Counted from the stretch's first letter, positions 1 through 26,314 are shown. The stretch is DNA of 64,000 nucleotides from an uncultured bacterium (GCA_949297765.1 CASFTV010000008.1:2137-66136); one strand, 5' to 3'. Translations and numbers: made by a program. The notes: generated by a model from the sequence alone, not told the origin.

Positions 1-1996
1 CCGGTTTCCCGTCTTTTTTCCGATAGACATACATCGTAACGCCGCGCGGCGTTTCCATCCGCCGGACCGGGACACTTCCCTCCATGAAGCGGGCGAATGC
101 GTTTCCGGCGATATAGTGTTCCGACGGAATCAACCGCCGCACAACACGGCTGGCCGCATATCCGTATTTCGGATTGCGGTCCTGCCGGAAGAAGAAGCTG
201 TCCGGTAAAAGGGTCTCCTGACGGATTCCCTCGCCGAGATCCAGCAGCATCCGGCGGATGAAATGACAGGCCCGTCCTTTTCCGGCATCCAGCGAATGCG
301 AAGGGTTGTCATACAGATAGTAGAGTTCCGTGTTCCAGAGCGGAAGATTTCCGCGGTATTTTTCCATCGCCGCGCGGATGGAAGCGATCGCGGTCCGCGA
401 CGGACTCGGAGAATCCTCCTCGCGGGAGGAATACGGATGGAAGGAGACAATATCCGTATACTGGAATCCGCCCGCCCTGCCGAAGCGTTCCAGAAAGTCC
501 GCCATAACGCCGCCGTGATCCCCGGTGACATTCGGAGCAACGACTTTGATCGACGGATCAATTTTCCGGCACTCCTCGAATGCGATCTTCAAGTATTTCA
601 CATACTCTTCCGGCGGGGTGGTCAAATTTGCCTCGTTCAGGATCTCCCAGCAGTGGACTCTTCCCTTGAAATGGCGGACTGTTTCCGCCACATAGCGCCG
701 CCAGTCTCCAAGATCGGGAAGAACCGCGACGGCTCCGGCGACTTTCGTTTTTTCCAGACGCTGTCCCCGTTCGATCACCCATCGCGGGAGATTGCGCTCC
801 AGGAAATTGTTTCCGAGAACGCCCAGCACGAAATTTTTCTCTTTCAGCACTTTGTTGACGATCCAGTCCGACATCCGGAAATCAAATTTTCCATCCTCCG
901 GCTGAACGGCATCCCAGCGGAATGCGCGCAGTGTTCCATTTCCGAGGCGATGGAGACGGACTCCGCGATTGCGGACCAGCCGCTCATACTCTGCAAGGTC
1001 CGCCTCTTTCAGATGAAACAGCAGCCGGCCTCCGTTGATGTCGGGACAGTCGAATCCGAATCCTTCCTCACACCCCAGAAGAAAATCCTTTTCGGGATTC
1101 ACACTGCCTCCGACGTATTTCTCGGTCACGGCATAGAGATACGGCCAGATCATCTCTGTTTTCCCGCCGACGCGCGCCTCTCCGCGCAGGGAATAGATTC
1201 CATACTTCTTCTGATCCACCGTCAGCGATTTGCGGACGATCTGTCCGGCGGGGACCGTCAGTTTCAGGCTTTGTTCCCCCAGTTTCTTTCCCCGGTAATC
1301 GTCATACTCGCACAGACGGATTTCCGTCTCAGCGTTCTGTTTTCCGTAATTGACCGCGCTCAGGACACAGGAAAGCGGCCCGTCCCCGTCAATGCGGCAG
1401 TGGTTCGAGGAATCCAGCGTGAATTCCACCGGACATTTCGGTGCGAACGGCGGAACGGCTTTCCCGGGAGAAATCATGAGCGCATCCAGCCAGACTGTCG
1501 CATCGGAATTTCCCCCCCACAGAAGATCCGCCAGATACCAGCGGAACTTCTTTTTCGGCGTGAATGAAATGGAATACCGTTTCCATTCCGGTGTCAGCGT
1601 GAAATACCGGAAATTCCGGTTGTCCCAGAGACTTTTGTAAAAGTTGTCGTCATCCGGAATGACGGAAAAGAGCGTTGCGCGCACTTTGACCGGTTTGCTG
1701 CTTTTCGCATAGAAGGAAAATGTGTACGGTGTCCCATCCTGAAGAAGAAAGTCCGGCGTCCGCAGTCCTGTCGGCACTCCGAACGGATTATCGAAGCGCA
1801 ATGACACCTTCCCGTGGACGGGATGTTCCGGATCCGTGACCGGCGCCTGATACCGATACTGCCGCACATCGGAAATATCCCAAACGAAACGGCGTTTGGA
1901 ATAATCGCTCCCGCCAAGTTCAAAACTGGCATCGGGCAGAAGATTTTCCGCAAACAGAGCTCCACAGAGGAACAGCAGAGGAAGACACGGTCTCAT
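1..1996 (-). CDS. Secreted clan GH-A (TIM-barrel) glycoside hydrolase with N-terminal CBM-like module; 3' end truncated by window edge
   Basis: Absent from the ORF track because the frame stays open to position 1. My translation from ATG (1996-1994) gives MRPCLPLLFLCGALFAENLLPDASFE, a signal peptide followed by an NLLxxxxFE start. The same frame gives VHCWEILNEANL (658-623, WExxNE acid/base-type motif) and LPLWNTELY (346-320, nucleophile-type TE). The start overlaps the stop of the upstream ORF (ATGA at 1993-1996). Confidence 0.7.
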   Translation of the reverse strand, partial: MRPCLPLLFLCGALFAENLLPDASFELGGSDYSKRRFVWDISDVRQYRYQAPVTDPEHPVHGKVSLRFDNPFGVPTGLRTPDFLLQDGTPYTFSFYAKSSKPVKVRATLFSVIPDDDNFYKSLWDNRNFRYFTLTPEWKRYSISFTPKKKFRWYLADLLWGGNSDATVWLDALMISPGKAVPPFAPKCPVEFTLDSSNHCRIDGDGPLSCVLSAVNYGKQNAETEIRLCEYDDYRGKKLGEQSLKLTVPAGQIVRKSLTVDQKKYGIYSLRGEARVGGKTEMIWPYLYAVTEKYVGGSVNPEKDFLLGCEEGFGFDCPDINGGRLLFHLKEADLAEYERLVRNRGVRLHRLGNGTLRAFRWDAVQPEDGKFDFRMSDWIVNKVLKEKNFVLGVLGNNFLERNLPRWVIERGQRLEKTKVAGAVAVLPDLGDWRRYVAETVRHFKGRVHCWEILNEANLTTPPEEYVKYLKIAFEECRKIDPSIKVVAPNVTGDHGGVMADFLERFGRAGGFQYTDIVSFHPYSSREEDSPSPSRTAIASIRAAMEKYRGNLPLWNTELYYLYDNPSHSLDAGKGRACHFIRRMLLDLGEGIRQETLLPDSFFFRQDRNPKYGYAASRVVRRLIPSEHYIAGNAFARFMEGSVPVRRMETPRGVTMYVYRKKDGKP

Positions 1997-2931
1997 TTCT
2001 TATGGGTCCTTTCTTTCATTTTCAACATTGCATCCTTGATCTGCAGCGATGTGTAATCCGCCAGAGGATTCACCTTGATCCGAACCATTCCGCGATACCG
2101 GGAAAGTTCCGGAGTCCTGAACGGGAAGGAATATTCCCTCCATTCGTCCGTCACCCGGAATTTCTGGAGTTTGTACCAGTGTTTCTCTCCGGAGACCCAT
2201 CCGTCGACCGAAACGGAAACCGGCTTTTCCGCATCCGCCTTCATCCAGATGGAACATTCATAGTCCGTATTTTCCAGGACCGGCAGCGGAATGCTCTCCA
2301 GCGTGACACAGCCACCCTTCTGCGGCGCGGAGTTCAATGCGAGTCCGCCTTCGATATGATCCTCGCACGGAACCAGACTCAGGCAGGAGGGCTGATTGCG
2401 GAACTTCCACTGCATTCTCCATTGCAGTGCGAGATTCTCCTCCGTTTTGAGCTTCAGGACGGCAAGATCGTTCTCCGGGAGCGCCGTCAGCCGGAGCTTC
2501 CGCACCTGAATTTCCGCGGGAGACGGGCTTTGTGCATAGACGGAAACTTTTGCCGTCCCGTCCGCCGGCATGACCAGATACCCGGAAAGAGTACGCCAGG
2601 TTCCGGAAAATTCCTTTGTCTCATAGTCTCTCCGGAACTTCTCTGCGGGTTTGTCCACCTGGAGAACGAGGTTCAGCTGAGTGTTCCCGCCCGCGCCTTC
2701 GCTCCGGTACTCCAGAGAACAGGTATAGACGCCTTTCTTCAGAGGGAGTTTCACCGCAAGACTGGTCCATTTTCCCGGTTTGACATCATATACGAAGCAG
2801 CCGTCCCGGAACGCGACATTGGATCGTCCATACGCTCTTCCGTCCTCCGGAAGCAGATTTTTCTCCGCGGCGGAAAGAGTTCCCGCCGCCAGAAGCAGAA
2901 AAACGAAGCCGAATTTCAATGATTGTCTCAT
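1993..2931 (-). CDS. Secreted non-catalytic protein of two CBM4/9/22-like beta-sandwich modules
   Basis: 312 aa. Signal peptide MRQSLKFGFVFLLLAAGTLSAAE. The mature start AEKNLLPEDG resembles the N-termini of the neighbouring hydrolases. The second half has a CBM-like pattern (YECSIWMKAD...WREYSFPF). No catalytic motif seen. SD-like GAGGA lies 6 nt upstream of the ATG. Family call is by pattern only. Confidence 0.55.
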   Translation of the reverse strand: MRQSLKFGFVFLLLAAGTLSAAEKNLLPEDGRAYGRSNVAFRDGCFVYDVKPGKWTSLAVKLPLKKGVYTCSLEYRSEGAGGNTQLNLVLQVDKPAEKFRRDYETKEFSGTWRTLSGYLVMPADGTAKVSVYAQSPSPAEIQVRKLRLTALPENDLAVLKLKTEENLALQWRMQWKFRNQPSCLSLVPCEDHIEGGLALNSAPQKGGCVTLESIPLPVLENTDYECSIWMKADAEKPVSVSVDGWVSGEKHWYKLQKFRVTDEWREYSFPFRTPELSRYRGMVRIKVNPLADYTSLQIKDAMLKMKERTHKK

Positions 2932-2977
2932 CTCATGTCCTCATGTTTTGGAAGTCCGGATACACGTCCGTTTATTT

Positions 2978-3706
2978 TCAGCGGAGCAGGTCCAGATTGA
3001 ACGTTTGAATCGCCCGTCCGTCCACGGAAATCCATTTGAGCGTGAACGGCCCCCGGCGGGAGGAGACGGAACCGGAAACAAAAAGGAACGGAGCCTTCCG
3101 CCCATGGATGAAGAGCTCTTTCAATCCGTCACTTCCCTCGACGAGAGTATTCGTAATCGGATCCGGAGTCAGAACCGAGTTGTTCCAGGAGGAATATTTG
3201 GGCTGCCGGCTGGACATCAGAGCGACTCCCGACGAGAGCTTTGTCATCCGTCCGCCATAATACACCGAGGAATCCGGCGTCCACTCCCATGCATGCCCGT
3301 CGCACCGGGCATTCCAGACCATCGTCACCTGATACGAGGAAAAAAACTTTGTATTCTCATTGGTCGGAGCAATCTCATCATGCGCCGGACAGAACATCAT
3401 TCCCCGCATGCTCTTCTCCGAATCCGGAATCCCCAGATAGCGGGCAAGATAATTCCGAAGCAGCCTTCCGGTATTGTTGCTCACCTCCGGGAGCTGGTCG
3501 TCCGAATCCGAGCAGTACATCGTCGTCGCCGTGCCGAGCTGTTTCAGATTGCTGGTGCACTGTGCCTCCTTCGCCGCATCGCGCGCCTTCTTCAGTGCCG
3601 GAAGAAGCATCCCGGAAAGGATGGCAAGGATGGCAATAACGACCAGGAGTTCTATAAGGGTGAAATTTCTTTTGTTCCGATCCACTTTCTCCTCCCGGTT
3701 TTCCAT
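2978..3706 (-). CDS. Prepilin-type N-terminal domain protein (pseudopilin-like, degenerate H-X9-SG C-terminus), cassette A
   Basis: N-terminus ...[28 protein letters not shown] is a class III signal-like segment with Glu at +5. C-terminal [13 protein letters not shown] is an H-X9-SG variant. An alternative start is the in-frame GTG at 3685, preceded by GGGAGGAG. That would give a 7-aa leader like the paralogs. Confidence 0.85.
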
Positions 3707-3736: not shown

Positions 3737-3765
3737 ATTATAGCAAATTCATTCCGGAAAATCAA
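3737..3765 (-). promoter_or_regulatory. Sigma70-type promoter for the pseudopilin-CBM-hydrolase operon
   Basis: The minus strand reads TTGATT-17 nt-TATAAT with TGC immediately upstream of the -10 (extended -10, TGCTATAAT). It lies about 30 nt upstream of ATG 3706. Confidence 0.6.
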
Positions 3766-3805: not shown

Positions 3806-3833
3806 TTGAAACAAATGAAACACATGCTATACT
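3806..3833 (+). promoter_or_regulatory. Sigma70-type promoter for the LacI-family gene, overlapped by TGAAACA repeats
   Basis: TTGAAA-16 nt-TATACT with an extended -10 (TGCTATACT). (A/T)TGAAACA occurs three times (3786, 3807, 3816) across the -35 and spacer. Confidence 0.55.
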
Positions 3834-3858: not shown

Positions 3859-4806
3859 ATGAAAGCAACCGTCCGATCCATTGCGAAAGCGGCGCAGGTT
3901 TCCCCTGCGACCGTTTCCCGCGTATTCAGCGGCTCCGCCCGGGTCAATCCGCAGGTGCGGGCACAGGTTCTGAATCTTGCACGGGAACTCGGTTATCACG
4001 GCTCGGAAGGACGCAATATCGCCTTAATCACAAGCGGGAACACGTTTTTCGGCTATGACGGCATGATTCTGGATGCGCTCCAGTCTGAGCTGGCACATCG
4101 GAAATTCCGGGCGATTCTGATTCCGCTGTTCAGTCTGCCCTGTCTGGATGAATGTGCCTTTGCGGGAGCAATTTCCATTGTTTACACCAGCGGACTGGAA
4201 AAGATCTGGAGCCGGAACCGGGCGGCGCCGCTGGTATGCATCAACACCATCGGATATCATCTGGACGGCATCTATCAGGTGAGGTCCGATGAAACCAGGG
4301 GGACGGAACTGGCGCTGAAACACCTGTTCGAGTTCGGACACCGGAAAATCGGGATGGTGACTTTTGCAAGCGATCCGTCCCAGTCCAAAGCCTTCCCTCT
4401 CCGGGTTGAGGCCTTTCAGCGCTTTCTTCGGGAACATGGGGGTACGGGGAAAATTGCCAACGCAATCTCCATCACCCGTGTGCCGGATGCCGTTCGCATG
4501 CTGCTGGATGCGGGAGTCACCGCGATTTTTGCAGTGGGGGAATCCATCGGCCTTCCGGTTACACATGCGCTGAAACTGTTCCACCGCGGAATTCCGGAGG
4601 ATATTTCTCTGATCTCCTATGAAAACAGGGGGATTTCCGAACACATGGATCCCCCGCATACAACGATCGGCCAGCGAATGGACCGTCTGGCCGCCGCGGC
4701 AGTGGATCTGATAGAAAAACAGCTGAACGGGGAACACAACCTTTCCGACATTTCGGTGGACTATTATCTGCGCCGCCGCGACAGTGTCATGCCGCCGAAG
4801 CAGTGA
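3859..4806 (+). CDS. LacI-family transcriptional regulator
   Basis: N-terminal HTH MKATVRSIAKAAQVSPATVSRVFSG...ARELGYH, followed by a periplasmic-binding-protein-like sugar-binding core. AAAGGAG RBS. Divergent from the cassette A operon. Confidence 0.9.
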   Translation: MKATVRSIAKAAQVSPATVSRVFSGSARVNPQVRAQVLNLARELGYHGSEGRNIALITSGNTFFGYDGMILDALQSELAHRKFRAILIPLFSLPCLDECAFAGAISIVYTSGLEKIWSRNRAAPLVCINTIGYHLDGIYQVRSDETRGTELALKHLFEFGHRKIGMVTFASDPSQSKAFPLRVEAFQRFLREHGGTGKIANAISITRVPDAVRMLLDAGVTAIFAVGESIGLPVTHALKLFHRGIPEDISLISYENRGISEHMDPPHTTIGQRMDRLAAAAVDLIEKQLNGEHNLSDISVDYYLRRRDSVMPPKQ

Positions 4807-4833: not shown

Positions 4834-7800
4834 TTATTCCCGGGTCAGCAGAGAGGAGAGCGTTCCGCCGGGCAGAAAATCGGTTGCCATGCGGAACCGG
4901 AGTTTTCCGTCGCGGTATTCCGCCGGGATCTCCCGGTCCGCCGGAGTCCCGTCCAGTTCCAGCGGGACAATCCGCATGTTGTGCGGCAGGGAGAGGACCA
5001 TCTCCGCAGAACCGCGTTCCAGCATCTGGGGAAGACCTCCCCAGCTGAGCAGAATCCGCCGGCTTTTGTCCTCGAAGCGCAGTCCGTCGTTGGCAAGATC
5101 GGTCAGCTGGACGAGCAGGATTTTCCGGCTGTCCGTCAGAGATTTCCCGTCCAGCGACATCAGGGCGACGGTCTGAAACCCGCTGAGCTTCGCCGACACG
5201 ATAACCGATCCGCTCTGAGTTCCCGATCCGGTCAGCACTTCGCTCCGTGGAGTCACGATCCGCATGGATTTTTCATTCCGGTTCAGCGTGATCTCTTTTG
5301 TGGAGGAGGTGATTTCGCCGCGTTTGCGCAGGGATCCCAGAGCGGACCGCGCTTCCTGTGAAAGGTTCTTCTCCCAGTTTTTCCGGAGCGGATCGACCTT
5401 TTTCACGCCGGGAATGTTCCTCTGCTCCGTCAGGGAACCGATCCGTCCGAAGAGGCCGAGTCTCTGGAAATCCATCGGATACGTTCCGGCGCGGCTGTTG
5501 CCCTTCAGCGAACGGATCTGTTCCGGTTTGAGTTCAAACGCATACGCGGGATCCGCGGTTTTGACGTCGCCCCGGACAAAGAGCATGTAGAGGATCCGTT
5601 CCGCCATCTGCGCCTGAATATTGTTGACGATGTCAAAATGATTCAGTGCGCGATCGGGATTTCTCATGCCGGTGATTCCGTGAGACCAGGCAAAGCGGTA
5701 GAGACCGTCCCAGTCCTGCAATCCGGCATATCCTCCGAAGAGGGCCGGACACTCCGCGCGCCAGATGTTCGGCACGCAGAAATTGAACTCCGTCACGGTG
5801 AACGGTTTTCCGAACACGCGAGTTGCCATCAGCTCCCGCGGCGCCGCGGCTTCAGCGCCGATCGACGAACGGTTGTGAAACACAAACGGGATCCCCCAGC
5901 GCTTCTGCGGAAACCGCGGATGATCCCAGTACTGATGATTGTCCACATGATCCAGACCGGAACGAAGCCCGGCAATGGGAAACACCATGTAGTTGTTCAG
6001 ATCGGTCACGAGCGCCTTGAGTCCGACCTCCTCCTTCAGGAATCGCATCTGCTCCCGGATGCACTGCTCCTGAAGAGAATTGAGAAATTCGATGAAAAGA
6101 CCGTTCCGTGTGATCCTTTTTTCATCGGCGGAAAGAGAATTTTCACGCAGATACTCCTCAAACTTCCGCAGATAGATTCTGCGGGCGCCGAACGAGGTCC
6201 GGACGCTGTCCCAGACGCCGATCAGCGGATTCTCGTTCACCAGATTCAGGGAGTAGAGAACCGGATCCCCGGCGAGGGAGAGGCCGGTATAGGGATTTTT
6301 CGCGCACAGAACCTTCCGGGCGAACGCCTTCCAGTTCCGCATCGCGGCCGGACTGATCGGGATCAGATTTTTCATGCTGTATTCGCCGGTCCGGTCGAAT
6401 TCCGGGATCCGGTCGCCGTCCTTCAGTTTCCGGCTGGCGTAAAGGTCGATGCAGACATAGAATCCGCGCTCCTTCAGCCGGGCAATCAGGAAATGGAACT
6501 GATCCAGCTTCTTCGGATCAATGGTGAGACTGTCGGCGGCCTTGCGGTCCAACAGTCCCTCCTCGAAATGGTGGAGCCGGACCGTAATGTAGCCGAGCCG
6601 TTCCGCATTCCGGAGGAACTGTTCGACCTCCGCGCGGTTCGGGTAATTGGCACTCCCGACAAGATTCGGCCCCAGCAGACGGATCCGCTTCTCCGGAGCC
6701 TTCTCAAACACGAAATGACCGTTCCGATCGGCAATAATATGACCGTATTTTCCCGCGGGCATCTCGCGGAAGACGGAAAAATCCAGCGGAGAATCCTTCG
6801 CCGTCGTCCCGCCGAACCGGATCGGCAGCCACTCCGGCCCCTTCCGGACGATAAACTCATCCTGCAGCGGAAAACGAGCCCGCCCGTCCGCGAAAGCGGC
6901 TCCGGCGATCATCCAGACCACATCTCCGCCCCCCCTGACAAACTCCAGATGCACCGGCTTCCCCTTCAGCGGAAATGCGGAAAGATACAACCCGATCTCC
7001 GCGGAAGGCACTCTTCCGTTCCATACAAGATGCGCATTCTGTCCGGACAGCGGATTGTACCAGTTTCCGCAGTCGCGCCCGGCGGCAACGGTCAATTTTT
7101 CCGACCGGCCGTCCTCATACCGGATCCGGAGAAAGCCGACCGGCGCTCCTCCCACGGGAGTCCATGCGGAAGCGTGAAGCAGATAGAGATAGCGCATTCC
7201 CTGCGGGAAACGGGAGATCTCCACTGCGGCGGACTCCGGTCCGAGCCCCTGTCCGAGCACCAGACACGATTTTCCTCCGTTCCGATCCGGATTCACCGTG
7301 TCGATCCGGACATTGTAAAAATTGTGCTTCCCGGTTTTCAGGGAACGGAGATCCATTTCCGCCCCCTGCCCGGTCCAGCCGGGGAATTTGCCGTCGTCGC
7401 GGAAGCTCCGGTTGAAAATCCCGGAAAGATCCAGCGGAACGGACTTCACATCAAGCCGGGAGAAATCATACCGGAAATCCAGCGCGAGATTCCAGTTTTT
7501 CACCGTTTCCGGATGCCGTTTTTCGGGCAGAAAGCGCAGCTGATAATACTCCGTTTCGCCGCGGACGAATTTTCCTGTGCAGAACAGATAGAATTTTCCG
7601 GAAACTGCAAAACAGCCGTGGGGATCCCGGACTTCGACCTTCCGCGCCTTTCCGCCGAAGACATTCTTTTTCCGGAAAGCCGGCGGCATGGAAACCGTTT
7701 TCCCATCGACCTTCAGTTCAATTTTCTTATTCAGAGGCAGATCGACCCCCAGAAATACCATTTTACACGGGACAGGTTCCTTCCGGGCGTCCAGACGGAC

Positions 7801-8100
7801 TTCCCAGCGGAAATTGTCCTCCGCCTCCGCCTGAATGGTTTCCGTGATCCGGAAAAGGTCGAATTCCCCTTTCAAGGAAAACTCCTTCTTCGAGTGTTTC
7901 GGATACCCGGCATCCGGTTTCACACGCGACTGGCCGATCGGATTCCACGCAGGAGTATACCGGAGCATGGAAAAGCGGTAGCGTCCGTCCAGAGAGAATC
8001 CCCCGTCGGGGGAAATCTGCACACTTTTCCCGAAATCCGCAGTTGAAGCGAATGGAAGAAATAGAAGGGTGATAAAGATTGTTTTTAAAAACACGGTCAT
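4834..8100 (-). CDS. Secreted multi-domain clan GH-A glycoside hydrolase (GH5-like TIM barrel), cassette B
   Basis: 1088 aa. Signal peptide MTVFLKTIFITLLFLPFASTAD. TIM-barrel-type motifs ITVRLHHFE, LNLVNENPL (NE acid/base) and FTVTEFNF (TE nucleophile). AGGAGA RBS in the 18-bp gap after the pilin-like gene. Confidence 0.75.
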   Translation of the reverse strand: MTVFLKTIFITLLFLPFASTADFGKSVQISPDGGFSLDGRYRFSMLRYTPAWNPIGQSRVKPDAGYPKHSKKEFSLKGEFDLFRITETIQAEAEDNFRWEVRLDARKEPVPCKMVFLGVDLPLNKKIELKVDGKTVSMPPAFRKKNVFGGKARKVEVRDPHGCFAVSGKFYLFCTGKFVRGETEYYQLRFLPEKRHPETVKNWNLALDFRYDFSRLDVKSVPLDLSGIFNRSFRDDGKFPGWTGQGAEMDLRSLKTGKHNFYNVRIDTVNPDRNGGKSCLVLGQGLGPESAAVEISRFPQGMRYLYLLHASAWTPVGGAPVGFLRIRYEDGRSEKLTVAAGRDCGNWYNPLSGQNAHLVWNGRVPSAEIGLYLSAFPLKGKPVHLEFVRGGGDVVWMIAGAAFADGRARFPLQDEFIVRKGPEWLPIRFGGTTAKDSPLDFSVFREMPAGKYGHIIADRNGHFVFEKAPEKRIRLLGPNLVGSANYPNRAEVEQFLRNAERLGYITVRLHHFEEGLLDRKAADSLTIDPKKLDQFHFLIARLKERGFYVCIDLYASRKLKDGDRIPEFDRTGEYSMKNLIPISPAAMRNWKAFARKVLCAKNPYTGLSLAGDPVLYSLNLVNENPLIGVWDSVRTSFGARRIYLRKFEEYLRENSLSADEKRITRNGLFIEFLNSLQEQCIREQMRFLKEEVGLKALVTDLNNYMVFPIAGLRSGLDHVDNHQYWDHPRFPQKRWGIPFVFHNRSSIGAEAAAPRELMATRVFGKPFTVTEFNFCVPNIWRAECPALFGGYAGLQDWDGLYRFAWSHGITGMRNPDRALNHFDIVNNIQAQMAERILYMLFVRGDVKTADPAYAFELKPEQIRSLKGNSRAGTYPMDFQRLGLFGRIGSLTEQRNIPGVKKVDPLRKNWEKNLSQEARSALGSLRKRGEITSSTKEITLNRNEKSMRIVTPRSEVLTGSGTQSGSVIVSAKLSGFQTVALMSLDGKSLTDSRKILLVQLTDLANDGLRFEDKSRRILLSWGGLPQMLERGSAEMVLSLPHNMRIVPLELDGTPADREIPAEYRDGKLRFRMATDFLPGGTLSSLLTRE

Positions 8101-8118: not shown

Positions 8119-8847
8119 TCACTTCTGTTTCAAATCCCACTTTTCCTTATAGATGCGACTGGTTGCGGAGTTTGCCCCGTCCCAGAGATCCCGGAAGGAG
8201 AGCGATGCGGCGTGACCGTCATGGAACACACCGCTCAGCCGTCCTGAATGCCGGTATGCCGGCATATTGTTGATGGAGGAGGAATAGATCTCTCCGTAAA
8301 CGTCATAGTAGTTTGCTTTGTTTGCCCGTTCATAGCAGACCATCCAGTCGGTGCCATCCGTGAAGAGCAGCTTGGAGGAGGGGTGGTTCACCTGCGTACT
8401 CCGAATTCCCCGATACATTCCGCTGCTGTGTTCGGAGAAACTGGGCAGGCCCTCACGATTCATTCCATACGAGTTCATCACCTGGAAACAGCCGGGCCAG
8501 GAAGGCGACGTAACAGACCGGGCGAGAGATGCATTCGGGCAAATCAGGCTGCTCGGCCAGTAGTCGCCGACCTCCGGAGTCAGTTTCGCATACGGACGGA
8601 GCTGATAAACCCACCGGAGTGTCGACAAATCTCCCAGCGTATTCACGCCCGGACACCATCCGTCATAATCGTCCTGATAGAAAATCACAAATTTCCCGAA
8701 GGAATTCAGAATATTCATACAGGTGATCGCGCGCGCCTTCTCTCTTGCGGCATTCAGAGCGGGCAGAAGGATCGCCGCAAGAATCGCGATGATTGCAATC
8801 GTAACAAGCAGTTCTATCAGGGTAAAGTTTCTTGTTCTCTTTTTCAT
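8119..8847 (-). CDS. Prepilin-type N-terminal domain / H-X9-DG protein, cassette B
   Basis: Trimmed from track ORF 8119-9006 to ATG 8847, which is preceded by [47 protein letters not shown]-terminal HSGRLSGVFHDGH is H-X9-DG. Confidence 0.88.
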   Translation of the reverse strand: MKKRTRNFTLIELLVTIAIIAILAAILLPALNAAREKARAITCMNILNSFGKFVIFYQDDYDGWCPGVNTLGDLSTLRWVYQLRPYAKLTPEVGDYWPSSLICPNASLARSVTSPSWPGCFQVMNSYGMNREGLPSFSEHSSGMYRGIRSTQVNHPSSKLLFTDGTDWMVCYERANKANYYDVYGEIYSSSINNMPAYRHSGRLSGVFHDGHAASLSFRDLWDGANSATSRIYKEKWDLKQK

Positions 8848-11103: not shown

Positions 11104-11115
11104 TTATACGAATAA
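11104..11115. promoter_or_regulatory. 12-mer TTATACGAATAA within TATAC-N6-GTATA inverted repeat, candidate autoregulatory operator
   Basis: Located 19 nt upstream of the LacI-family ATG (11085). It is the reverse complement of 10085-10096. Local context is TTTATACGAATAAGTATAC. Confidence 0.4.
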
Positions 11116-11200
11116 GTATACTGCAAAACGCAGGATTTGTCAAGAGGGGGAGGCGTGATTTTTCCGAAAAAAGTTTTTCTCCGCCCGGGAGGGGAACCGG

Positions 11201-12319: not shown

Positions 12320-12348
12320 ATTATACTTGCAGAACCGCTGTTTTTCAA
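12320..12348 (-). promoter_or_regulatory. Sigma70 consensus-like promoter for the GntR-family gene
   Basis: The minus strand reads TTGAAA-17 nt-TATAAT. The -35 overlaps the stop codon of the pilin-like gene (12345-12347). Confidence 0.55.
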
Positions 12349-16410: not shown

Positions 16411-16470
16411 GAAAAACTCTCCATCATTTTCCGATTTTCTGTTTCATTTCTGCGCGCTTTATTTTAAATT

Positions 16471-16494
16471 ATATCCCAGAATATCCCAGATATC
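16471..16494. repeat. Tandem 10-mer ATATCCCAGA x2.4 in divergent promoter region
   Basis: Sequence is ATATCCCAGAATATCCCAGATATC. It abuts a minus-strand TATAAT (16468-16473) upstream of the hydrolase gene. A C7 run follows at 16496-16502. Confidence 0.6.
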
Positions 16495-16691
16495 ACCCCC
16501 CCTTTTGCGAAAAAAATGAAAACTTTTTTCCGGAGCTTCAGATCCGGAGGAAGGGAGGAGGAAAAAGAACTTGAAAACGGAAAAAATCGAAGTACGGTAC
16601 TTTCTGTTGCAACGGAATTCGCGGCGGATCGGGAAACGCTTCCGCCGGACCGGCAGACGGCATTCAAACGATCAGAAAAAAGGTCTTCTCC

Positions 16692-19185: not shown

Positions 19186-19214
19186 TTGACAACTGATTAA
19201 TCATGTGCTATAAT
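19186..19214 (+). promoter_or_regulatory. Perfect-consensus sigma70 promoter with extended -10
   Basis: TTGACA (19186-19191), a 17-nt spacer, then TATAAT (19209-19214) preceded by TGC (TGCTATAAT). Confidence 0.7.
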
Positions 19215-19237
19215 ATATGCCGACGGGAGGATTCGGA

Positions 19238-20611
19238 ATGTCGAACATCACCAAAATCATGACCTTTACATCCACGGTGGAACAGCTGATCCGGGACAGG
19301 GCGCCCGGCTTTACAGACCGCCTTCCGGGACAGCGGGAGCTGGCCTCCCGTTTCAATCTGTCCCAGAGCCTGGTCCACATCGGGATGACGGAACTGAAAA
19401 AACGGGGCGTGATTGTCATTGAACCGTACAAGGGAGCGTCTGTCGCACAGGCGGAGAAGAAGGCGGAGGAAGCCGAACCGGTCTCACCGCTGACCCTCCT
19501 GATCTGCGAGGACAACCCCCGGCAGAGAGCGTTCTGGCTCCGTGCCGTTGCTCTGTTTGAAGAGCGGTCGCCGGGAATCCGGGTGAGTACACGCTTCCTG
19601 CCGTCAGACCGTCCGCCGGAAGATGTCGTTCCGGGGCGACGGAATACGGTGGTGATCCGTCCGGGGGATTACCGGAAAGGGCCGCACCCCTGCGTTCCTC
19701 TTTCCGAACTTCTTCCCGCGGAAAGACTTGCCGATCTGCAGAACCGTCTTCTTCCGGGGCTTCATGCGGTGGACTGGAGCATTGCTCTTCCCTTCCAGCT
19801 GCAGGTCATGGCACAGATCTACGATGCGCGGGGAACCGACGGCCCTCCGCCGGAGGATTTTCCCGCCTATCTCGACTGGCTCAGTCACTGCTACGGGGCA
19901 CACGCGATTCCGGTTCAGAATCTGGATCTGCTGCGCGACTGCTGCGGGCTTGACCGGGCGGAAATGCTGATTCCGGATGAAAACGGACTCTCCCCGGAAC
20001 TGCGCCTGTTTCTGACATCGCTGGAGACCATCGGGCGTCATCAGCTGATGGAACCCGCATGCGAAAAAAACAGCGATCAGATCCGCTTCCTGCTGGAAAG
20101 AAGAATCCGGACGGCGGAGGTGTTTTCGCACCGCTGGACGGAACGCGGGATCTTCCAGAATGAAACCTACCGGTTCTCCCGTCCGCGGAGTGCGGTGAAA
20201 CGGCGGAGACTGCCCTACTTTCTCTCGGTCGCCGTCCTTGCCGGTTATGAGGAGGTTTCCGAAGCGGAGCGCCGCTGGTTCGAATTTCTCGCCGATCCGG
20301 AGCTTCAGATCCTTCAGATGCAGGAGGGTCTCGGACTTTCCCCGTATGCGGACCTTCTGAAGGAATCCTGCGGTGAACGCCTCCGGGATGTTGCGGAATG
20401 GGCGGCTCAAACGGTATTCGAGGACCGGAGAGAACCCCTGCTGGAGACACTCTGGAGCGAGGTCCTCCACAGACTGCGCGAACCGGTTGTTCTCCCTCTT
20501 CTGTTCGGTCAGATCACCGGAGAACGGGCGTTTTCCCTCATTTCCGAGCGGAATCTTCTGGATCCGGATGCCCTCCGGAACTGCATTGCAGAGCAGCTTT
20601 CTCTGGATTGA
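19238..20611 (+). CDS. GntR-type wHTH regulator with large (about 390 aa) uncharacterised C-terminal domain, cassette D
   Basis: Start moved to ATG 19238 (GGGAGG 7 nt upstream). The track start 19217 lies only 2 nt downstream of the -10 hexamer. LPGQRELASRFNLSQSLVHIGMTELKKRGVIVIEPYKGASV is a GntR wHTH. Confidence 0.7.
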   Translation: MSNITKIMTFTSTVEQLIRDRAPGFTDRLPGQRELASRFNLSQSLVHIGMTELKKRGVIVIEPYKGASVAQAEKKAEEAEPVSPLTLLICEDNPRQRAFWLRAVALFEERSPGIRVSTRFLPSDRPPEDVVPGRRNTVVIRPGDYRKGPHPCVPLSELLPAERLADLQNRLLPGLHAVDWSIALPFQLQVMAQIYDARGTDGPPPEDFPAYLDWLSHCYGAHAIPVQNLDLLRDCCGLDRAEMLIPDENGLSPELRLFLTSLETIGRHQLMEPACEKNSDQIRFLLERRIRTAEVFSHRWTERGIFQNETYRFSRPRSAVKRRRLPYFLSVAVLAGYEEVSEAERRWFEFLADPELQILQMQEGLGLSPYADLLKESCGERLRDVAEWAAQTVFEDRREPLLETLWSEVLHRLREPVVLPLLFGQITGERAFSLISERNLLDPDALRNCIAEQLSLD

Positions 20612-20671: not shown

Positions 20672-23600
20672 ATGAAGCGACGACAATTTCTGTTTTTTTT
20701 CTCTCTGCAGTTTCTCCTGACGGCGGGAGCGGCGGAGAACGTGAACATCGACGCATTCACAAGCGGACGGTGTTATGTCCATAACGGGGCGAATCTTCGC
20801 CAGGAGCTGCGTTTTTTCCCGCAGGGACCGGACGGGCGGCCCGCAACCCGTCTGACCTGGGATTCCGGGAAAAAGAATTATGCGGAACTCAATCTCCGGA
20901 AGGCGCCGCAGTTTCAGGAGTTCCGGGCACTGGAACTCCGTCTGGAGTACCATTCCGACGGAAGCGGCCAGCTGAAGAGCTTCGGATTCCGGATGTTCGA
21001 TGCCAAAAACGAATGTTTTCAGTGGATCGTCCCCGCGCATGACAAGACCCCCGGCTGGAAAACGGTCCGCGCAACCCTTTCGCCGGACAAATTCACCGAC
21101 AGCTGGGGCAGGGAAAAGACCGGAAAAATCCGCTTTCCAGTCCGTCTGATCGGTTTTGCCGCCGGATTTGAGCAGGGATCTTCCGGACCGGTCTACTTCC
21201 GGGAGATGAGCTGCCGCATTCCGGAGGCCCGGCCGACCATTCCCTCCCTGACCCGCCGCTGGACCTTCGACGATGCGGCGGAACGCTGGAACTCCTGGGG
21301 CGGCGCACGGATGAAAGACCATCGGATTTTCTGTGAAAAAGCGGGCAACGTCTTTCTGAACGAGCGGATGTTCCCGCTGCATCCGGTCGCACAGCCGGAA
21401 AGCATCCGGATCGACTGTACGCTGGAATCCGGTTCCGCGGAACTTTTCCTGACCTTGTTTGACGGAAACCGGAAATCCGTCACACTTCCTGCGCGGCAGG
21501 TCGGCGCGGGGCGCAGCAGCGTCGTCTGGGAGACGGGAAACCTGACTCCGCCGCTTCAGCTTTCCCTCCTGCGCATCCGCACCCGGTCCGACCGGACCGG
21601 CATCCGTCTTCATGCGCTGGAGACCTGGGAACGCAAAACGCCGGAATCCTCGGTTGCCATGCGCGTGGAAACCGGCCATCCGCTGCATCTGATCCTTCCG
21701 GGCGGAGAGCAGAAAGCTGTTCTCCATCTGGAAAACCGGACGCGGGAAAAACTCCGTCTTCAGGCGGAATTTGAGATCTGCGATTTCTTCGGGCCGGTGG
21801 ATTCCTTTTCCCGCCTTCTGGAGTTTTCTCCGCGGCAGACCAGAAGCATTTCCCTCCCGGTGGAGCGGTATCCGCGGGATGGAATCTTCTTCATCCGGAG
21901 CGCATTTCACGAGCCGGGATCCGGAGAGATCTTCCGGGATCAGCGCTGTTTTGCGCGGATGATTCCGGCCGGACCGACGCCGTTTCCGGATTTCCGGAAA
22001 AAAGACGGATTCCTGTTCGGGATCTGCACGCACACGGAACGATGGGGACGCCGCGACCGGGAACTGGAGGTTCTGGCGGCGGCGCTGGCGGGAGCAAAGA
22101 TCATCCGCAACTCCGTCGGATGGGGAGAGATCCAGCCGAAGAAAGATGTCTGGAATTATGCCATGTTCGACGAACTGGTCACCCGTTACCGGAACAGCGG
22201 CATGGAGCTGCAGGGCGGGTTCGGTCTCTGCGCGGGATGGGGCAAGGCGGCCGACGCCCGGCTCCGCAACGGCAAACCCGATCCGCTGAACAACGGACGC
22301 TCCATGCCGGATCTTGATGCGTGGACCTTCTACGTCCGGAAGACCGTCGCGCGCTACAGGGATCAGATCCGCTACTGGGAGGTCTGGAACGAACCGGACC
22401 TGCCCCACTTTGCAAATTTCGGTGTGGAGGACTATCTCCGTCTTCATGCGGCGACCTTCCGGGCCGTCCGGGAAGCGTCTCCCTCGGCCAGGGTCATGAA
22501 CGGCGGATTCGCCGGGCTCGGCAGCGATGCGCAGATCCGCTATCAGCGGACCTTTCTCGAACAGGGACGCAATACTCTTGATCTTCATGCGTTTCATCAG
22601 CACGGCGATTTCCGCTACTACCGGAAAATCATCGACGAAATCTTTCTTCCCCAGCGGCGGGAAACCGGTTGCAGCCGCATTCCCTGGTACGCCAACGAGA
22701 CCGCGATGCACTCGCTCGGCGGACAGGATCATGCACAGGCGGAAACCCTTTTCAAGAAACTGATCTTCTCCTGGGCGCGCGACGCGATCGGATACACCTG
22801 GTACGATCTGCGCAACGACGGCTTCAGCGCCACCGACGCGGAACACAACTACGGCATGATGACCAATGATTTCTATCCGAAAGCCGTCTATCCGGCCTAC
22901 GCCGCCCTCGCCAGGATGTACCGGGAGATGACCTTCCTGAAGGAGCTGCATCCGGCGCAGGGAGAATACCTCTACCTTTTCCGGAACGGGAAAGAGCGCG
23001 AACTTGCCGCGGCGGCATGGCGGGAACCGGTCGAAGCCGCATTTTCCGGAACGCTGTTTGCCGGCGTCACGGACGCCGCGTCGATGGAAATCGCCGACAT
23101 CATGGGCAACCGCCGCCCGCTCGCGCTGCACAACGGACGCTTCCTTCATCAGAGTTCGGCCACTCCGGAAACACTTCTGCTCCACAATGCTTCGACTCTC
23201 AGCTTTGTTCCAGTCCTCCGGGCGGAGACCTCCGATCCGGCGGCGGAAGGACGGACGGTCCGGGTGAGAGTCCGCATGAACAATCCGTTGGACACCCCTC
23301 TGCGCATGAAACTGCGCCTGAACGCTCCAGTGGAATTCAAGCCGCTTTCCGGAACAGAGTGCACCCTGAACGCCGGTCCGAAAGGGGAAAGTTCCGCGCA
23401 GATCGCGTTCCGAGTCGGGAAAACCGGAGAAAACAACTTCCGCCCGTTCCGCCTCGGCATCGCGGCGGAAAGCTCCGACGGTGCCACGGCTGAACTCGGA
23501 CTCCCGGTCTATCCGGCAAAAGCTCTTTCCGGGAAAATGAACCTGAGGAAGCCGGATTTCCTTCTGAAACACCGCCATCAGGTGGTCTCTCTCTACGACA

Positions 23601-24133
23601 AAGTTCCGGGCCGTTCCATCTGGCAGGGGGAACAGGACCTCTCCGCCGCGCTCTCCTTCGGGTTGGACGGGAAATTTCTCCACCTGACCGCGGTTGTACG
23701 GGATGATGTTCATCGTCCGTCGGGCAGCGCTTCGCAGATCTGGAAAGGAGATTCCGTCCAGTTCTTCCTGGAACTTCCGGATCGCGGAACCTGGGTCGCC
23801 GGCGGTGCGCTGACCGCCTCCGGGAAAACGGAAAAATGGATCTGGAACGCCCCCTCCGGCTTCTCCGCAGAACAGGCAGTACGGACTCTGGACATCCGGG
23901 CGGACCGGAAAGGAAATGTCACAACCTATGTTTTCCGCATTCCGAGAAAGGAATTCGGTCTGTCAAAAACGCTGGCGGAGAAGGGATTCCGCTTCAACTT
24001 CCTGGTCAACGACAGCGATACGGAACGCGACGGCCGGGAAGGCTGGATCCGTCTTGCTCCGGGCGCCGGAGATGAAGTCGCACCGCTCAACTATCCGATT
24101 CTTTTCTTCCCTCCGGAATCGCCCGGCGGATAA
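20672..24133 (+). CDS. Secreted clan GH-A glycoside hydrolase (GH39/GH5-like) with C-terminal CBM9-like domain, cassette D
   Basis: 1153 aa. Signal peptide MKRRQFLFFFSLQFLLTAGAAE. Motifs GWGEIQPKKDVWNY, IRYWEVWNEPDL (acid/base) and PWYANETAM (nucleophile-type). The C-terminus GDSVQFFLE...FNFLVNDSD...GWIRLAPG is CBM9-like. Confidence 0.78.
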   Translation: MKRRQFLFFFSLQFLLTAGAAENVNIDAFTSGRCYVHNGANLRQELRFFPQGPDGRPATRLTWDSGKKNYAELNLRKAPQFQEFRALELRLEYHSDGSGQLKSFGFRMFDAKNECFQWIVPAHDKTPGWKTVRATLSPDKFTDSWGREKTGKIRFPVRLIGFAAGFEQGSSGPVYFREMSCRIPEARPTIPSLTRRWTFDDAAERWNSWGGARMKDHRIFCEKAGNVFLNERMFPLHPVAQPESIRIDCTLESGSAELFLTLFDGNRKSVTLPARQVGAGRSSVVWETGNLTPPLQLSLLRIRTRSDRTGIRLHALETWERKTPESSVAMRVETGHPLHLILPGGEQKAVLHLENRTREKLRLQAEFEICDFFGPVDSFSRLLEFSPRQTRSISLPVERYPRDGIFFIRSAFHEPGSGEIFRDQRCFARMIPAGPTPFPDFRKKDGFLFGICTHTERWGRRDRELEVLAAALAGAKIIRNSVGWGEIQPKKDVWNYAMFDELVTRYRNSGMELQGGFGLCAGWGKAADARLRNGKPDPLNNGRSMPDLDAWTFYVRKTVARYRDQIRYWEVWNEPDLPHFANFGVEDYLRLHAATFRAVREASPSARVMNGGFAGLGSDAQIRYQRTFLEQGRNTLDLHAFHQHGDFRYYRKIIDEIFLPQRRETGCSRIPWYANETAMHSLGGQDHAQAETLFKKLIFSWARDAIGYTWYDLRNDGFSATDAEHNYGMMTNDFYPKAVYPAYAALARMYREMTFLKELHPAQGEYLYLFRNGKERELAAAAWREPVEAAFSGTLFAGVTDAASMEIADIMGNRRPLALHNGRFLHQSSATPETLLLHNASTLSFVPVLRAETSDPAAEGRTVRVRVRMNNPLDTPLRMKLRLNAPVEFKPLSGTECTLNAGPKGESSAQIAFRVGKTGENNFRPFRLGIAAESSDGATAELGLPVYPAKALSGKMNLRKPDFLLKHRHQVVSLYDKVPGRSIWQGEQDLSAALSFGLDGKFLHLTAVVRDDVHRPSGSASQIWKGDSVQFFLELPDRGTWVAGGALTASGKTEKWIWNAPSGFSAEQAVRTLDIRADRKGNVTTYVFRIPRKEFGLSKTLAEKGFRFNFLVNDSDTERDGREGWIRLAPGAGDEVAPLNYPILFFPPESPGG

Positions 24134-24264
24134 CATGCTCTCTCCGGGGGGACAGCGGAACATGAAATGAAATCAGATCCGGATGCGCGGTCAACGCTCC
24201 GGAGATTCAAACTCAACAACAGCGGAACCGGGGAACGGTTTCCGTCAAAAAAAAGGATTTGAGA

Positions 24265-24993
24265 ATGAAAACGAAACAGGCCTTCACCCTTATAGAGCTC
24301 CTCGTTGTAATTGCGATCATCGCGATCCTTGCCGGCATGCTTCTTCCGGCGCTGAACAGAGCGCGGACAAAGGCGCGGTCGGTGGCATGCCTCAGCAATC
24401 TCAAACAGATCGGTCTGGCGCTTGCTCAATATGAAAACGGAGAATATTTTCCGCCGCGGAAGCAGGGAAGCGCCACGGAGGGCTGTGTGACATGGGAGGA
24501 GTTTGTCGTTCAGGGAATGGGAGGCAACGGGGCGCATGAGAACCGTTTTCAAACGGCGGTCAAATATCTTTCCTGCCCGATGGATCCGCTTCCCGCGGCG
24601 GGAGGGAAAAAGACCAAGCTGAGCTACGTCTTCAATTCCGGCGACGCCGACACATCCGGCAATGTTCTGACTCTTACCGATACTCCGGTTCCCGGCGACC
24701 ATGCCTTCCGCCTTGACCGGATCGTCGGAACATACGGAAAAAACAAAAACAGAGGCGGTTCCACGGTTCTGATCACAGACCGCATCAATGTCCTCGGCGG
24801 CGTGGAAAACCAGTACAGCCAGGGACCGACGGCAATCTGGTGGGACTTCTCCAAAGATAACGGGCATCCCGCCATGCTCGGCGAACGCAACGCACTCATG
24901 TCCGGCATGCATGTGCGGAACATCCCCGCCGCCCCGTTCATCACCGGAACGGAACTGCTGATCCGCGAAAACTTCAGCTGGAAACTGAAATAA
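24265..24993 (+). CDS. Prepilin-type N-terminal domain protein (degenerate H-X9-DG), cassette D
   Basis: The track start 24259 is TTG. ATG 24265 has AAGGA 7 nt upstream. [31 protein letters not shown]-terminal ...[12 protein letters not shown] is a degenerate version of the GxxNxxFxDGHV region. Confidence 0.85.
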
Positions 24994-24994
24994 T

Positions 24995-25020
24995 CCTCCC
25001 GGAAATCCGGAACCGGGAGG
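24995..25020. terminator. Hairpin between convergent genes (CCTCCCGG-10 nt-CCGGGAGG)
   Basis: 8-bp perfect stem immediately after stop 24993. The T-tract is weak (GATCGTTTC). Confidence 0.45.
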
Positions 25021-25028
25021 AGATCGTT

Positions 25029-25481
25029 TCAGAGTTCCGTTATACCGATCACTCCATAGCCGGAACGGAACTTGTTCAATCCGATTTTCAGAGTCTGTCC
25101 GTTGCCGGTGCGTCCGGTGACAAAGAAAAGATTCCTGGAATCCGTTACGGAAAAGCAGCGGATGTCGTTAAGTGAAAGATTCCTTCCGTGTCGCCGGAGA
25201 GCAGCCAGCGAGTGTTCCACAGGATCAATCCCGGTCTCGGCCATCTGCAGTTTCCGCTCGGTCTCGGAAAAGGGGAAAAGACGGACAAGGGCATCCGCTC
25301 CGTTCTTATTGTACAGAGCAAGCAGGGTGTCCAGCAGCGACCGCAGCTCCTTTTCCTGCGCCGGGGGAGCGGGAATCTCCCGCTGAATCCGCTCCGGGTG
25401 GACGTCCGATCCGCCGTTCACCCAGAAAACTCCGCCAATTCCAAGAATCAAACACAGAATCATCCATCCTTTTTTCTTCAT
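25029..25481 (-). CDS. Small membrane-anchored hypothetical protein co-transcribed with pilin-like gene E
   Basis: 150 aa with an N-terminal TM segment (MKKKGWMILCLILGIGGVFWV). It starts 14 bp after the upstream gene. No recognisable motif. Confidence 0.55.
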   Translation of the reverse strand: MKKKGWMILCLILGIGGVFWVNGGSDVHPERIQREIPAPPAQEKELRSLLDTLLALYNKNGADALVRLFPFSETERKLQMAETGIDPVEHSLAALRRHGRNLSLNDIRCFSVTDSRNLFFVTGRTGNGQTLKIGLNKFRSGYGVIGITEL

Positions 25482-25495
25482 TGCAGTTCTCCCTG

Positions 25496-26314
25496 TTATT
25501 CCCGGACCCCGTAAAGATCGAGTCCGGAATCTCCGTCATGATCGGCGCTGGAATTCAGACATCCGATTCCATGATCCACGGAAAAATTGGCCGTCCCCAT
25601 CGTATTGGAACTGGCGTGATAGTATCCCGTCTGTGCCGACGCATGGCCGTCAACCCAGAGAATGTTCGCCCGCTTCTGATGGCGGAAGTGCGTCTTGTTG
25701 CAGCTGATGAGGTTGTTGACCGCCAGACCGGCGGAAGCTGAGAAGGTTGCGGAATCCCCGACACTGGCAACGCTCGACGGACGTTTGATCTTTCCCGGCC
25801 GCGCCGGGGCATACTCTCCGGAGGAAAGCATTGTCCCGAACATCATGGGAGTCCGGTGAACCACCGAATTGATTCCATAGCCGCCTCCGTTCGCGTGATC
25901 CACCGTCTGTGTTCCCAGCATGCCTTCAACCGAGGCGTCCGGACAGATGAAAACATTGGTCGACCGCTCCTGCATCACCGTCGCATCCACTCCGGCTTTC
26001 TTCAGGTAATTGGCAAGATATCCGTCCTGTGTAAAGTCGATCACATCTTTCCCGTCTTCCTTGTCAAGCCCCATGCCGCACCAGTACTTCCCGGCTCCGC
26101 CCATCAGATATTCCCGGGCGGGGCAGACATACTCAAAATCGGCGGCATACATCGCAAGCGCCGTCCCGATCTGCTTCAGACGCGACATACAGGAAACCGC
26201 GACTCCTTTGTTCCGCGCCGAACCCAGCGCGGGAAGAAGCATCCCCGCAAGAATCGCAATGATCGCAATTACAACCAGAAGCTCTATCAAAGTAAAGCTC
26301 TTTCTCCTGAACAT
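25496..26314 (-). CDS. Prepilin-type N-terminal domain / H-X9-DG protein, cassette E
   Basis: [31 protein letters not shown]-terminal [13 protein letters not shown] is H-X9-DG. Confidence 0.88.

Follow-up and report, generated by a model that had tools for sequence, protein, structure and literature searches.

A 64,000-nucleotide stretch of DNA from an uncultured gut bacterium of the Victivallales (GCA_949297765.1 CASFTV010000008.1:2137-66136; this whole stretch is referred to as the window) carries in its first 26,314 nucleotides five genes for pilin-like proteins (A to E), four of which lie in units (A to D) together with a gene for a large exported hydrolase. Here, we report that Lentisphaerota genomes commonly combine a regulator, a pilin-like protein of the DUF1559 family, and a big exported carbohydrate-active enzyme (CAZyme) in one module, which is passed on, duplicated, and rearranged as a whole. 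The reading that we favor, with a probability of just under 0.4, is that the pilin-like protein joins a filament of the class of type II secretion systems (T2SS) or type IV pili (T4P) that is assembled elsewhere and helps to deploy the enzyme outside the cell. We found no published description of a linkage between pilin-like and CAZyme genes; the papers that our searches returned treat DUF1559 only as an orphan paralogue family, which in P. limnophila forms the largest paralogue group (68 genes of unknown function, two of them essential; PMC10632474) and which in R. baltica comprises 74 PF07596 genes that were called solute-binding proteins (PMC2754498).

A scan of one genome per GTDB species with the alignment of the pilins gave 80 loci that were kept, 30 from Lentisphaerota and the rest mostly from Verrucomicrobiota and Planctomycetota (loci are cited by number, L001 and so forth). 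Pilin genes were called by motif and open reading frames (ORFs) by greedy calling, and a pilin gene was counted as linked if a same-strand gene of at least 500 amino acids (aa) lay within 300 bp downstream. In Lentisphaerota, 32 of 51 pilin genes were followed by such a gene, while genes of this length make up only 27% of all those called (binomial p=1e-7); in the other phyla, the corresponding figures were 10 of 62 and 21% (p=0.87). The two groups differed when all genes were compared (Fisher p=5e-7) and also when one pilin was counted per locus (18/30 vs 8/45, Fisher p=4e-4). The downstream partners in Lentisphaerota carry Pfam domains of the glycoside hydrolase (GH) families GH5, GH20, GH39, GH42, GH67, GH71, and GH123 as well as polysaccharide lyase family PL8, heparinase II/III, pectate-lyase-like, carbohydrate-binding module (CBM) CBM9 and CBM4_9, Laminin_G_3, and DUF4838 domains, whereas those in the other phyla are a miscellany in which neither CAZymes nor regulators form a pattern. 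On the upstream side, 16 of the 34 same-strand partners in Lentisphaerota contained Peripla_BP_3, together with a GntR (12) or LacI (5) domain. Moreover, a signal-peptide-like N-terminus was present in 28 of 34 pilin-linked large genes vs 14 of 47 unlinked ones (p=4e-6), and 12 further loci for which independent gene calls and precomputed Pfam matches were available had the same three-gene pattern. Homologues of the window genes were found in gut and rumen metagenome-assembled genomes (MAGs) of Victivallales/Lentisphaeria and in Victivallis vadensis; in a non-Lentisphaerota MAG with a relative of hydrolase B, no pilin motif was present within 15 kb of the enzyme gene.

Because DUF1559 genes reach high copy numbers (five in the 64 kb of the window, and roughly a further copy for every ~24 kb of flanking sequence in Lentisphaerota), their adjacency to enzyme genes could in principle be due to chance. 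The enrichment in Lentisphaerota and the difference from the other phyla argue against this explanation, as does the presence of an adjacent same-strand pilin gene at all seven Lentisphaerota loci with a B-family enzyme and all four with a D-family enzyme, independent replacements included, and we regard it as effectively refuted. The comparison across genomes strengthens the original reading of the units as real well beyond what the window itself shows.

In the window, all five prepilin-type genes (242-272 aa) were confirmed as real ORFs by an ORF listing together with Pfam and NCBIfam scans, and four of the five share co-oriented units with large ORFs whose N-termini are hydrophobic and resemble signal peptides. 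The order of genes differs between units: pilin A, a CBM4_9 protein, and a GH10-like hydrolase in unit A; a LacI regulator, a PD40-like gene, pilin B, and hydrolase B in unit B; hydrolase C, pilin C, and a GntR regulator in unit C; and a GntR-like regulator, hydrolase D, and pilin D in unit D. The gap between pilin gene and neighboring gene is 46 bp in A, 18 bp in B, 64 bp in C, and 131 bp in D, and the gene for hydrolase A overlaps that of the CBM4_9 protein by 4 nt (1993-1996). These distances and the gene order had been given correctly in the earlier map, apart from the PD40-like gene (8882-10069) between LacI B and pilin B, which was missing from it. The units are operon-like, with a predicted sugar-type regulator of the LacI or GntR class bearing a periplasmic-binding-protein sensor domain. 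The claim that each unit has a regulator of its own is clear from Pfam for A, B, and C, while in D the match is to a weak GntR-type helix-turn-helix (HTH) below the cutoff; of note, an orthologue of regulator D with 69% identity occupies the same position in L092. Sites that resemble the near-consensus sigma-70 promoters proposed originally are present: a 12/12 match lies at 19186-19214 and 11/12 matches lie 5' of three other units, promoter-like sites outnumber those in shuffled sequence (11 vs 6.3±2.5, and 5 vs 2.0±1.3), and they are positioned at the expected starts of units.

We then asked of related loci whether pilin and enzyme genes travel together. In the D family, the order regulator, enzyme, pilin is common to the window and L092, whose enzyme and pilin head are 68% and 78% identical to those of the window, while in L093 (enzyme 49% identical) the order is GntR regulator, pilin, enzyme with a clearly orthologous pilin head (43% identity, E=4e-54). 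Because one pilin lineage precedes the enzyme in L093 and follows it in the window and L092, the pair must have stayed together while the order flipped. In the C family, L089 retains hydrolase, pilin, and GntR regulator; in the B family, the pilin gene is directly upstream of the enzyme gene at every locus except L087, where it is just downstream, and in L001 the pilin in this position is orthologous to pilin B (head 63% identical). Pilin and enzyme were also copied together in two duplications, one in tandem at L067 and the other dispersed in V. vadensis (L020/L044). Over 47 pairs, pilin and enzyme similarity were correlated (Pearson 0.51, permutation p=0.0005), driven by close pairs. Expansion of a single duplicated block was rejected as the origin of the units in the window, because the four hydrolases are neither close nor recent paralogues. 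Together with the flipped D pair and the unit-wise duplications, this supports that the linkage is under selection, as had been argued originally from the permuted gene order.

The complete hydrolases B, C, and D have 1067-1153 aa and are large rather than giant, as they had been called. Hydrolase A, which has a hydrophobic N-terminus, matches the Pfam models GH10 (29 bits, cutoff 22.1) and CBM_4_9 (28.8 bits) and, in the PDB, GH10 xylanases (E~5e-7). Hydrolase D matches GH39 (29.4 bits, cutoff 26) and, in the PDB, 5jvk (E=1e-19) and GH39 xylosidases. Hydrolase B has no Pfam match; however, its profile matched GH5 mannanases in the PDB (E=2e-5), the residues N622-E623 and T770-E771 are invariant in an alignment of 35 sequences, and its V. 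vadensis homologue is named as a GH5 protein. Hydrolase B carries a signal peptide. In its AlphaFold2 (AF2) model, with a predicted local distance difference test score (pLDDT) of 91, two beta-sandwich regions at the N-terminal end precede a TIM barrel and a further beta-sandwich follows at the C-terminal end, and Foldseek matched the model to GH5 mannanases (E=3e-10) and to GH5/GH164 structures (E~1e-10). For hydrolase C, no Pfam catalytic domain matched, a phmmer search against the PDB gave no match, and an hhalign comparison with the B-family profile was not significant, though the HxY and xSE motifs line up; its local similarity to A and D is 21-22%. A, C, and D share 21-24% local similarity with each other and B shares none with them. 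A GH-A-type fold is therefore supported for A (by GH10), B (by the AF2 model and profile), and D (by GH39), whereas the proposed assignment of C to clan GH-A found no statistical support.

All five pilin-like proteins match PF07963 (N_methyl) with 28-33 bits (cutoff 21.2) and TIGR02532 with 21.9-29.7 bits (cutoff 16.3), in agreement with the prediction of five prepilin-type genes in 26 kb. With the DUF1559 model (PF07596, SBP_bac_10; gathering score 23.3), A, C, D, and E score above and B below the threshold (Table 1), and most matches span only the first part of the model. The C-terminal H-X9-DG model TIGR04294 (cutoff 19) is matched by C above the cutoff, by E with 16.3 bits, and not by A, B, or D; by eye, the motif reads H-X9-SG in A and H-X9-DG in B and E and is degenerate in D. 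The globular heads are divergent, as predicted: overall identity among the five proteins is 27-32%, and the invariant positions, an 18-residue stretch and one or two cysteines, fall almost exclusively in the N-terminal 50 residues, where FTLIELLV(V/T)IAI(I/L/V)AIL is invariant or nearly so. Because synonymous sites vary in this segment (third-position identity 0.42-0.70), it is conserved at the protein level, and gene conversion was rejected as the source of the identity. Matches to solved pilins, GspG, PilA, and ComGC span only the N-terminal ~60 residues. In an AF2 model of pilin C (73 sequences, pLDDT 91), a 50-residue N-terminal helix (residues 27-77) is packed on a beta-sheet, which in the model is a pilin architecture. 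The solute-binding fold suggested by the label SBP_bac_10 was not found: the model is not two-lobed, and Foldseek against the PDB returned no binding-protein match.

Based on these features, we suggest that the pilin-like protein would enter the inner membrane via the invariant N-terminal helix of class-III type, with Phe at +1 and Glu at +5, and would then be built into a type-IV-filament machine encoded elsewhere, either a T2SS pseudopilus or a T4P-like fibre. Its task would be to deploy the co-induced enzyme outside the cell, by bringing it through the outer membrane, by holding it on the fibre, or in both ways. On this view, it may work like a GspG-type pseudopilin with a variable head that is supplied in step with the substrate.

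Several observations weigh against this reading, and a first group concerns assembly and processing. Neither an assembly ATPase nor a platform protein, secretin, prepilin peptidase, or any other pilus or T2SS assembly gene was found among the scanned ORFs of the 64 kb, as had been stated originally, and a GspE/PilB Walker-A motif was absent from the window and 94 loci (1.48 Mb), a search that is uninformative on whole genomes. The filament machine is assumed rather than seen. With the GspG equivalog model TIGR01710, the five proteins reach 24.5-35.2 bits (cutoff 88.85) over model positions 1-65 only, and the head of pilin C has no significant structural match in the PDB by Foldseek. Canonical prepilin peptidases (PilD/GspO) need Gly at position -1 and tolerate Ala. 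In the window pilins (starts 3706, 8847, 13142, 24265, and 26314), the residue before Phe+1 is N, N, A, A, and S, respectively, and among loci L005-L084, G or A is present at -1 in 6 of 57 Lentisphaerota genes vs 66 of 68 genes from other PVC (Planctomycetota, Verrucomicrobiota, and Chlamydiota) bacteria. This loss of Gly-1 makes prepilin cleavage in Lentisphaerota uncertain and implies either a peptidase of relaxed specificity or no cleavage. Despite the variable -1 residue, F+1 and E+5 are invariant; the leaders are very short, e.g. MKK-FTLIELL.

We also considered that the proteins remain uncleaved, are anchored in the inner membrane by their N-termini, and face the periplasm, where they would escort or chaperone the large enzymes or bind products rather than form a filament. 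The almost unconstrained -1 residue in Lentisphaerota, the very short leaders, and the lack of assembly genes nearby would fit such a role, as would the solute-binding label of PF07596 in its Pfam identifier and in the R. baltica paper (PMC2754498). On the other hand, F+1 and E+5, which are important for pilin processing and assembly, are invariant under protein-level selection, and the modeled pilin-type helix and sheet do not resemble a two-lobed binding protein. Furthermore, the residue class at -1 is not correlated with enzyme linkage, in that G or A at this position does not separate enzyme-linked from unlinked pilins (4/6 vs 33/51). We consider this non-filament role improbable.

A second group of observations that count against a filament subunit serving its neighboring enzyme comes from the loci at which partners have changed. 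Unrelated pilins occupy the same slot beside similar enzymes (normalised similarity 0.57-0.69; L085, L086, L088, and L011/L031). Compared with pilin B of the window, those at L085, L086, and L088 are no closer than random pairs, although the enzymes have a normalised similarity of 0.29-0.57. The rank correlation of pilin and enzyme similarity over the 47 pairs was nil (Spearman 0.02) despite the Pearson coefficient, from which we conclude that co-inheritance prevails at short range with partner swaps beyond. Unrelated pilins in the slot and the nil rank correlation argue against specific recognition between pilin and enzyme. In L090 (8001-12286), from a close relative, pilin C, the GntR and LacI regulators, and the PD40-like gene are kept and hydrolase C, pilin B, and hydrolase B are gone, so that the enzyme and a block of pilin plus enzyme behave as separate units of insertion or deletion. 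Taken together, co-inheritance and replacement point to selection for having a pilin-like gene in the unit, often with a particular pair, rather than to strict one-to-one specificity. The notion of a private, cognate pilin is contradicted in part by the loci with unrelated pilins and by L090.

Possible traces of recombination are found in the vicinity of some pilin genes. At two loci of V. vadensis (L003/L004 8829-9977 and L020 13000-14157), a truncated 5' stub of a pilin gene (FTLIELLV) is followed by a repeated element of ~400 nt, 86.5% identical between the two loci and with an internal inverted repeat, and then by a complete pilin gene; a stub together with a full pilin motif is also present in L082 2524-3513 and L038 3945-4844 (Lentisphaerota). 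The stub and element may have been left behind when DNA was inserted or recombined at the conserved 5' end, and may point to a route to pilin replacement.

The easy swapping that such footprints suggest, together with non-orthologous replacement in a fixed slot and the existence of the family without a CAZyme link in other PVC phyla, would also be expected if the proteins were generic fibre subunits with no substrate-specific role, their linkage reflecting supply or co-regulation with the secretion load and the diversity of their heads reflecting surface variation under pressure from phages or hosts. However, orthologous heads evolve about as fast as the enzymes (head vs enzyme identity 78% vs 68%, 63% vs 69%, and 43% vs 49%) with no sign of accelerated diversification, and the D pair remained together through rearrangement; we therefore give little credence to a purely generic subunit.

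Finally, as was also proposed originally, the heads may be substrate-binding adhesins of a glycan-capture fibre that have a SusD-like role and are co-induced with an enzyme cleaving the glycan they bind. The high divergence of the heads is what different ligands would predict, each unit has its own sugar-type regulator, and L090 retains pilin and regulator where the enzyme is absent. There are also precedents, because dextran binds to pili-like fibres of Planctomycetes (PMC5394234) and the expression of the Caldicellulosiruptor bescii pilus is regulated in response to xylan (bioRxiv 10.1101/614800). Yet the model of pilin C has no recognisable CBM or lectin fold and no PDB match, enzymes that are close homologues and presumably share a glycan have unrelated pilins beside them, the units lack a linked importer, and the uncertainty about cleavage and assembly is the same as for a filament that deploys the enzyme. 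On balance, we see a role in glycan capture as possible but rather unlikely.

Among the closest known systems are the T2SS pseudopilins GspG-K and type IV pilins, with which the window proteins share the class-III-type N-terminus with F+1 and E+5 and the long helix with a beta-sheet. Unlike these, they are encoded by solo genes away from gsp and pil operons and belong to a very large paralogous family, their DUF1559 head has no PDB match, GspG scores are far below the cutoff, and Gly-1 is not conserved. The DUF1559 paralogues of Planctomycetota and Verrucomicrobiota belong to the same Pfam and NCBIfam families but keep G or A at -1 (66/68) and have miscellaneous neighbors. The Verru_Chthon cassette (TIGR02596) is likewise a PVC-specific cassette with prepilin-type proteins; however, the window genes are not members, as their weak N-terminal matches reach 17-23 bits vs a cutoff of 70 and no other members of that cassette were seen.

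The units also resemble the SusC/SusD polysaccharide utilization loci (PULs) of Bacteroidota in being substrate-specific and separately regulated modules of exported CAZymes and a non-catalytic exported partner that are iterated many times per genome and shuffled between lineages. In contrast to PULs, they have no TonB-dependent transporter or SusD, and neither SusC nor SusD had a Pfam match in any scanned ORF of the 64 kb. Moreover, regulation is by cytoplasmic LacI or GntR proteins with a binding-protein domain as opposed to hybrid two-component systems or extracytoplasmic function (ECF) sigma/anti-sigma pairs, and the partner is a pilin-like protein. The description as PUL-like without SusC/D is therefore apt for the regulator, the enzyme, and the non-catalytic exported partner and falls short in that no importer of any kind lies in the units. 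The dextran-binding fibres of Planctomycetes and the C. bescii pilus resemble the units in that pilus-type fibres are tied to polysaccharide capture and expression responds to glycans; they differ in that there is one pilus locus per genome or the genes are unidentified, whereas here dozens of single pilin genes each lie in an enzyme operon of their own. More speculatively, DUF1559/H-X9-DG proteins in general could be exchangeable, substrate-dedicated subunits of a PVC-specific fibre for polysaccharide capture or enzyme deployment, a functional counterpart of SusC/D in bacteria without it, and Lentisphaerota would have wired each subunit into its own sugar-inducible enzyme operon while relaxing the cleavage site; we view this generalization as somewhat doubtful.

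The linkage is the first genomic handle that we found on the function of DUF1559, and, for a family so far only vaguely described, it yields a hypothesis that can be tested in Victivallis vadensis, a gut organism in culture. A rule for annotation follows as well: the succession of a regulator, a pilin-like gene, and a large exported ORF flags as candidate new glycanases many enzymes that have no Pfam match, such as hydrolases B and C. The loss of Gly-1 raises the separate question of how, or whether, the pilin-like proteins are processed. If DUF1559 proteins are indeed substrate-dedicated subunits of such a fibre, one of the largest orphan paralogue families of the PVC superphylum would have a function, and players of fibre-mediated polysaccharide uptake would be identified; a 2025 review describes both the mechanism and the players of polysaccharide capture in PVC bacteria as unknown (PMC12673574).

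The features of the region with the pilin-like genes are listed in Table 1.

Table 1 Genes and promoter-like sites in positions 1-26,314 of the window
Feature	Position	Strand	Evidence and remarks
Hydrolase A, 3' part beyond window edge, 665 aa seen	1-1996	-	Signal peptide, CBM4_9, GH10-like catalytic region
Exported CBM4_9-only protein, 4-nt overlap with hydrolase A	1993-2931	-	Pfam CBM_4_9 E=3.6e-9; signal-peptide-like N-terminus
Pilin-like gene A (DUF1559), opens unit A	2978-3706	-	N_methyl 32.2 bits, SBP_bac_10 28.8 bits, TIGR02532
Promoter-like site 5' of pilin A	3737-3765	-	10/12 + TG extension; consensus match only
Promoter-like site for divergent LacI A	3806-3833	+	10/12 match
LacI-family regulator A, divergent from unit A	3859-4806	+	LacI HTH + Peripla_BP_3
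Hydrolase B	4834-8100	-	Signal peptide; GH5-like TIM barrel between beta-sandwich regions
Pilin-like gene B, upstream of hydrolase B with an 18-bp gap	8119-8847	-	N_methyl 29.8 bits; DUF1559 under the cutoff (18.2 bits)
PD40/beta-propeller-like protein, no signal peptide	8882-10069	-	Weak PD40 match
LacI-family regulator B, opens unit B	10114-11085	-	LacI + Peripla_BP_1/3
Promoter-like site 5' of LacI B	11115-11143	-	11/12 match
Regulator C, GntR-HTH + Peripla_BP_3	11201-12286	-	Pfam; directly after pilin C orthologues in L089, L090
Promoter-like site 5' of GntR C	12320-12348	-	11/12 match
Pilin-like gene C, downstream of hydrolase C	12345-13142	-	SBP_bac_10 48.2 bits; TIGR04294 20.4 bits (cutoff 19)
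Hydrolase C	13207-16410	-	Signal peptide; CBM_4_9 below cutoff; no Pfam match for a catalytic domain
Promoter-like site 5' of hydrolase C	16468-16496	-	10/12 match
Perfect sigma-70 consensus 5' of unit D	19186-19214	+	12/12 + TG extension
Regulator D, weak GntR-type HTH + long C-terminal domain	19217-20611	+	GntR E=3.5e-4, below cutoff
Hydrolase D	20672-24133	+	GH39/GH10-like in the catalytic region; signal peptide
Pilin-like gene D, downstream of hydrolase D with a 131-bp gap	24265-24993	+	N_methyl 33.3 bits, SBP_bac_10 31.6 bits
ORF of 150 aa (exported or membrane protein), after pilin E in the same orientation	25029-25481	-	No Pfam match; hydrophobic N-terminus
Pilin-like gene E, not enzyme-linked	25496-26314	-	N_methyl 32.1 bits, SBP_bac_10 23.5 bits; promoter-like site 26459-26486

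Directly beyond this region lies a gene for an SNF2-family helicase of 1057 aa (26557-29730, minus strand). The 26-64 kb part of the window holds, besides this helicase, genes for a sugar-binding lipoprotein, GH20, a SASA esterase, AXE1, Mla proteins, and others, including an N6/N4 DNA methylase at 49173-50225 (minus strand), and no pilin-like genes. The genes for GH20 (37842-39740), the SASA-esterase/GH2_N protein (43431-45368), and AXE1 (50203-51699) have no pilin neighbor and, according to a crude hydrophobicity check with uncertain start codons, no signal-peptide-like N-terminus, which fits a pilin linkage confined to exported enzymes. Four large ORFs of 555-1097 aa have no Pfam match (31742-35035 and 57490-59505 on the plus strand, 41513-43300 and 45405-47072 on the minus strand); as the sequence is GC-rich, some of them may be opposite-strand artefacts, and there are alternative ORFs around 35378-37932. 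Rfam and tRNA scans of the window gave no matches.

PDB searches with the PD40-like gene and with a 533-aa ORF were uninformative. The PD40-like gene (8882-10069) adjoins orthologues of LacI B or hydrolase B in L001, L085, and L090, and the genes that come after it in L090 encode GFO_IDH, mannitol-dehydrogenase, and GD_AH dehydratase proteins, hinting at the catabolism of a uronate-type sugar. Pilin E and the 150-aa ORF next to it are kept as a pair in L014, where the small ORF is 28% identical (E=8e-17) and the head of the pilin 38%, and ORFs of ~110-150 aa also follow many DUF1559 genes outside the Lentisphaerota.

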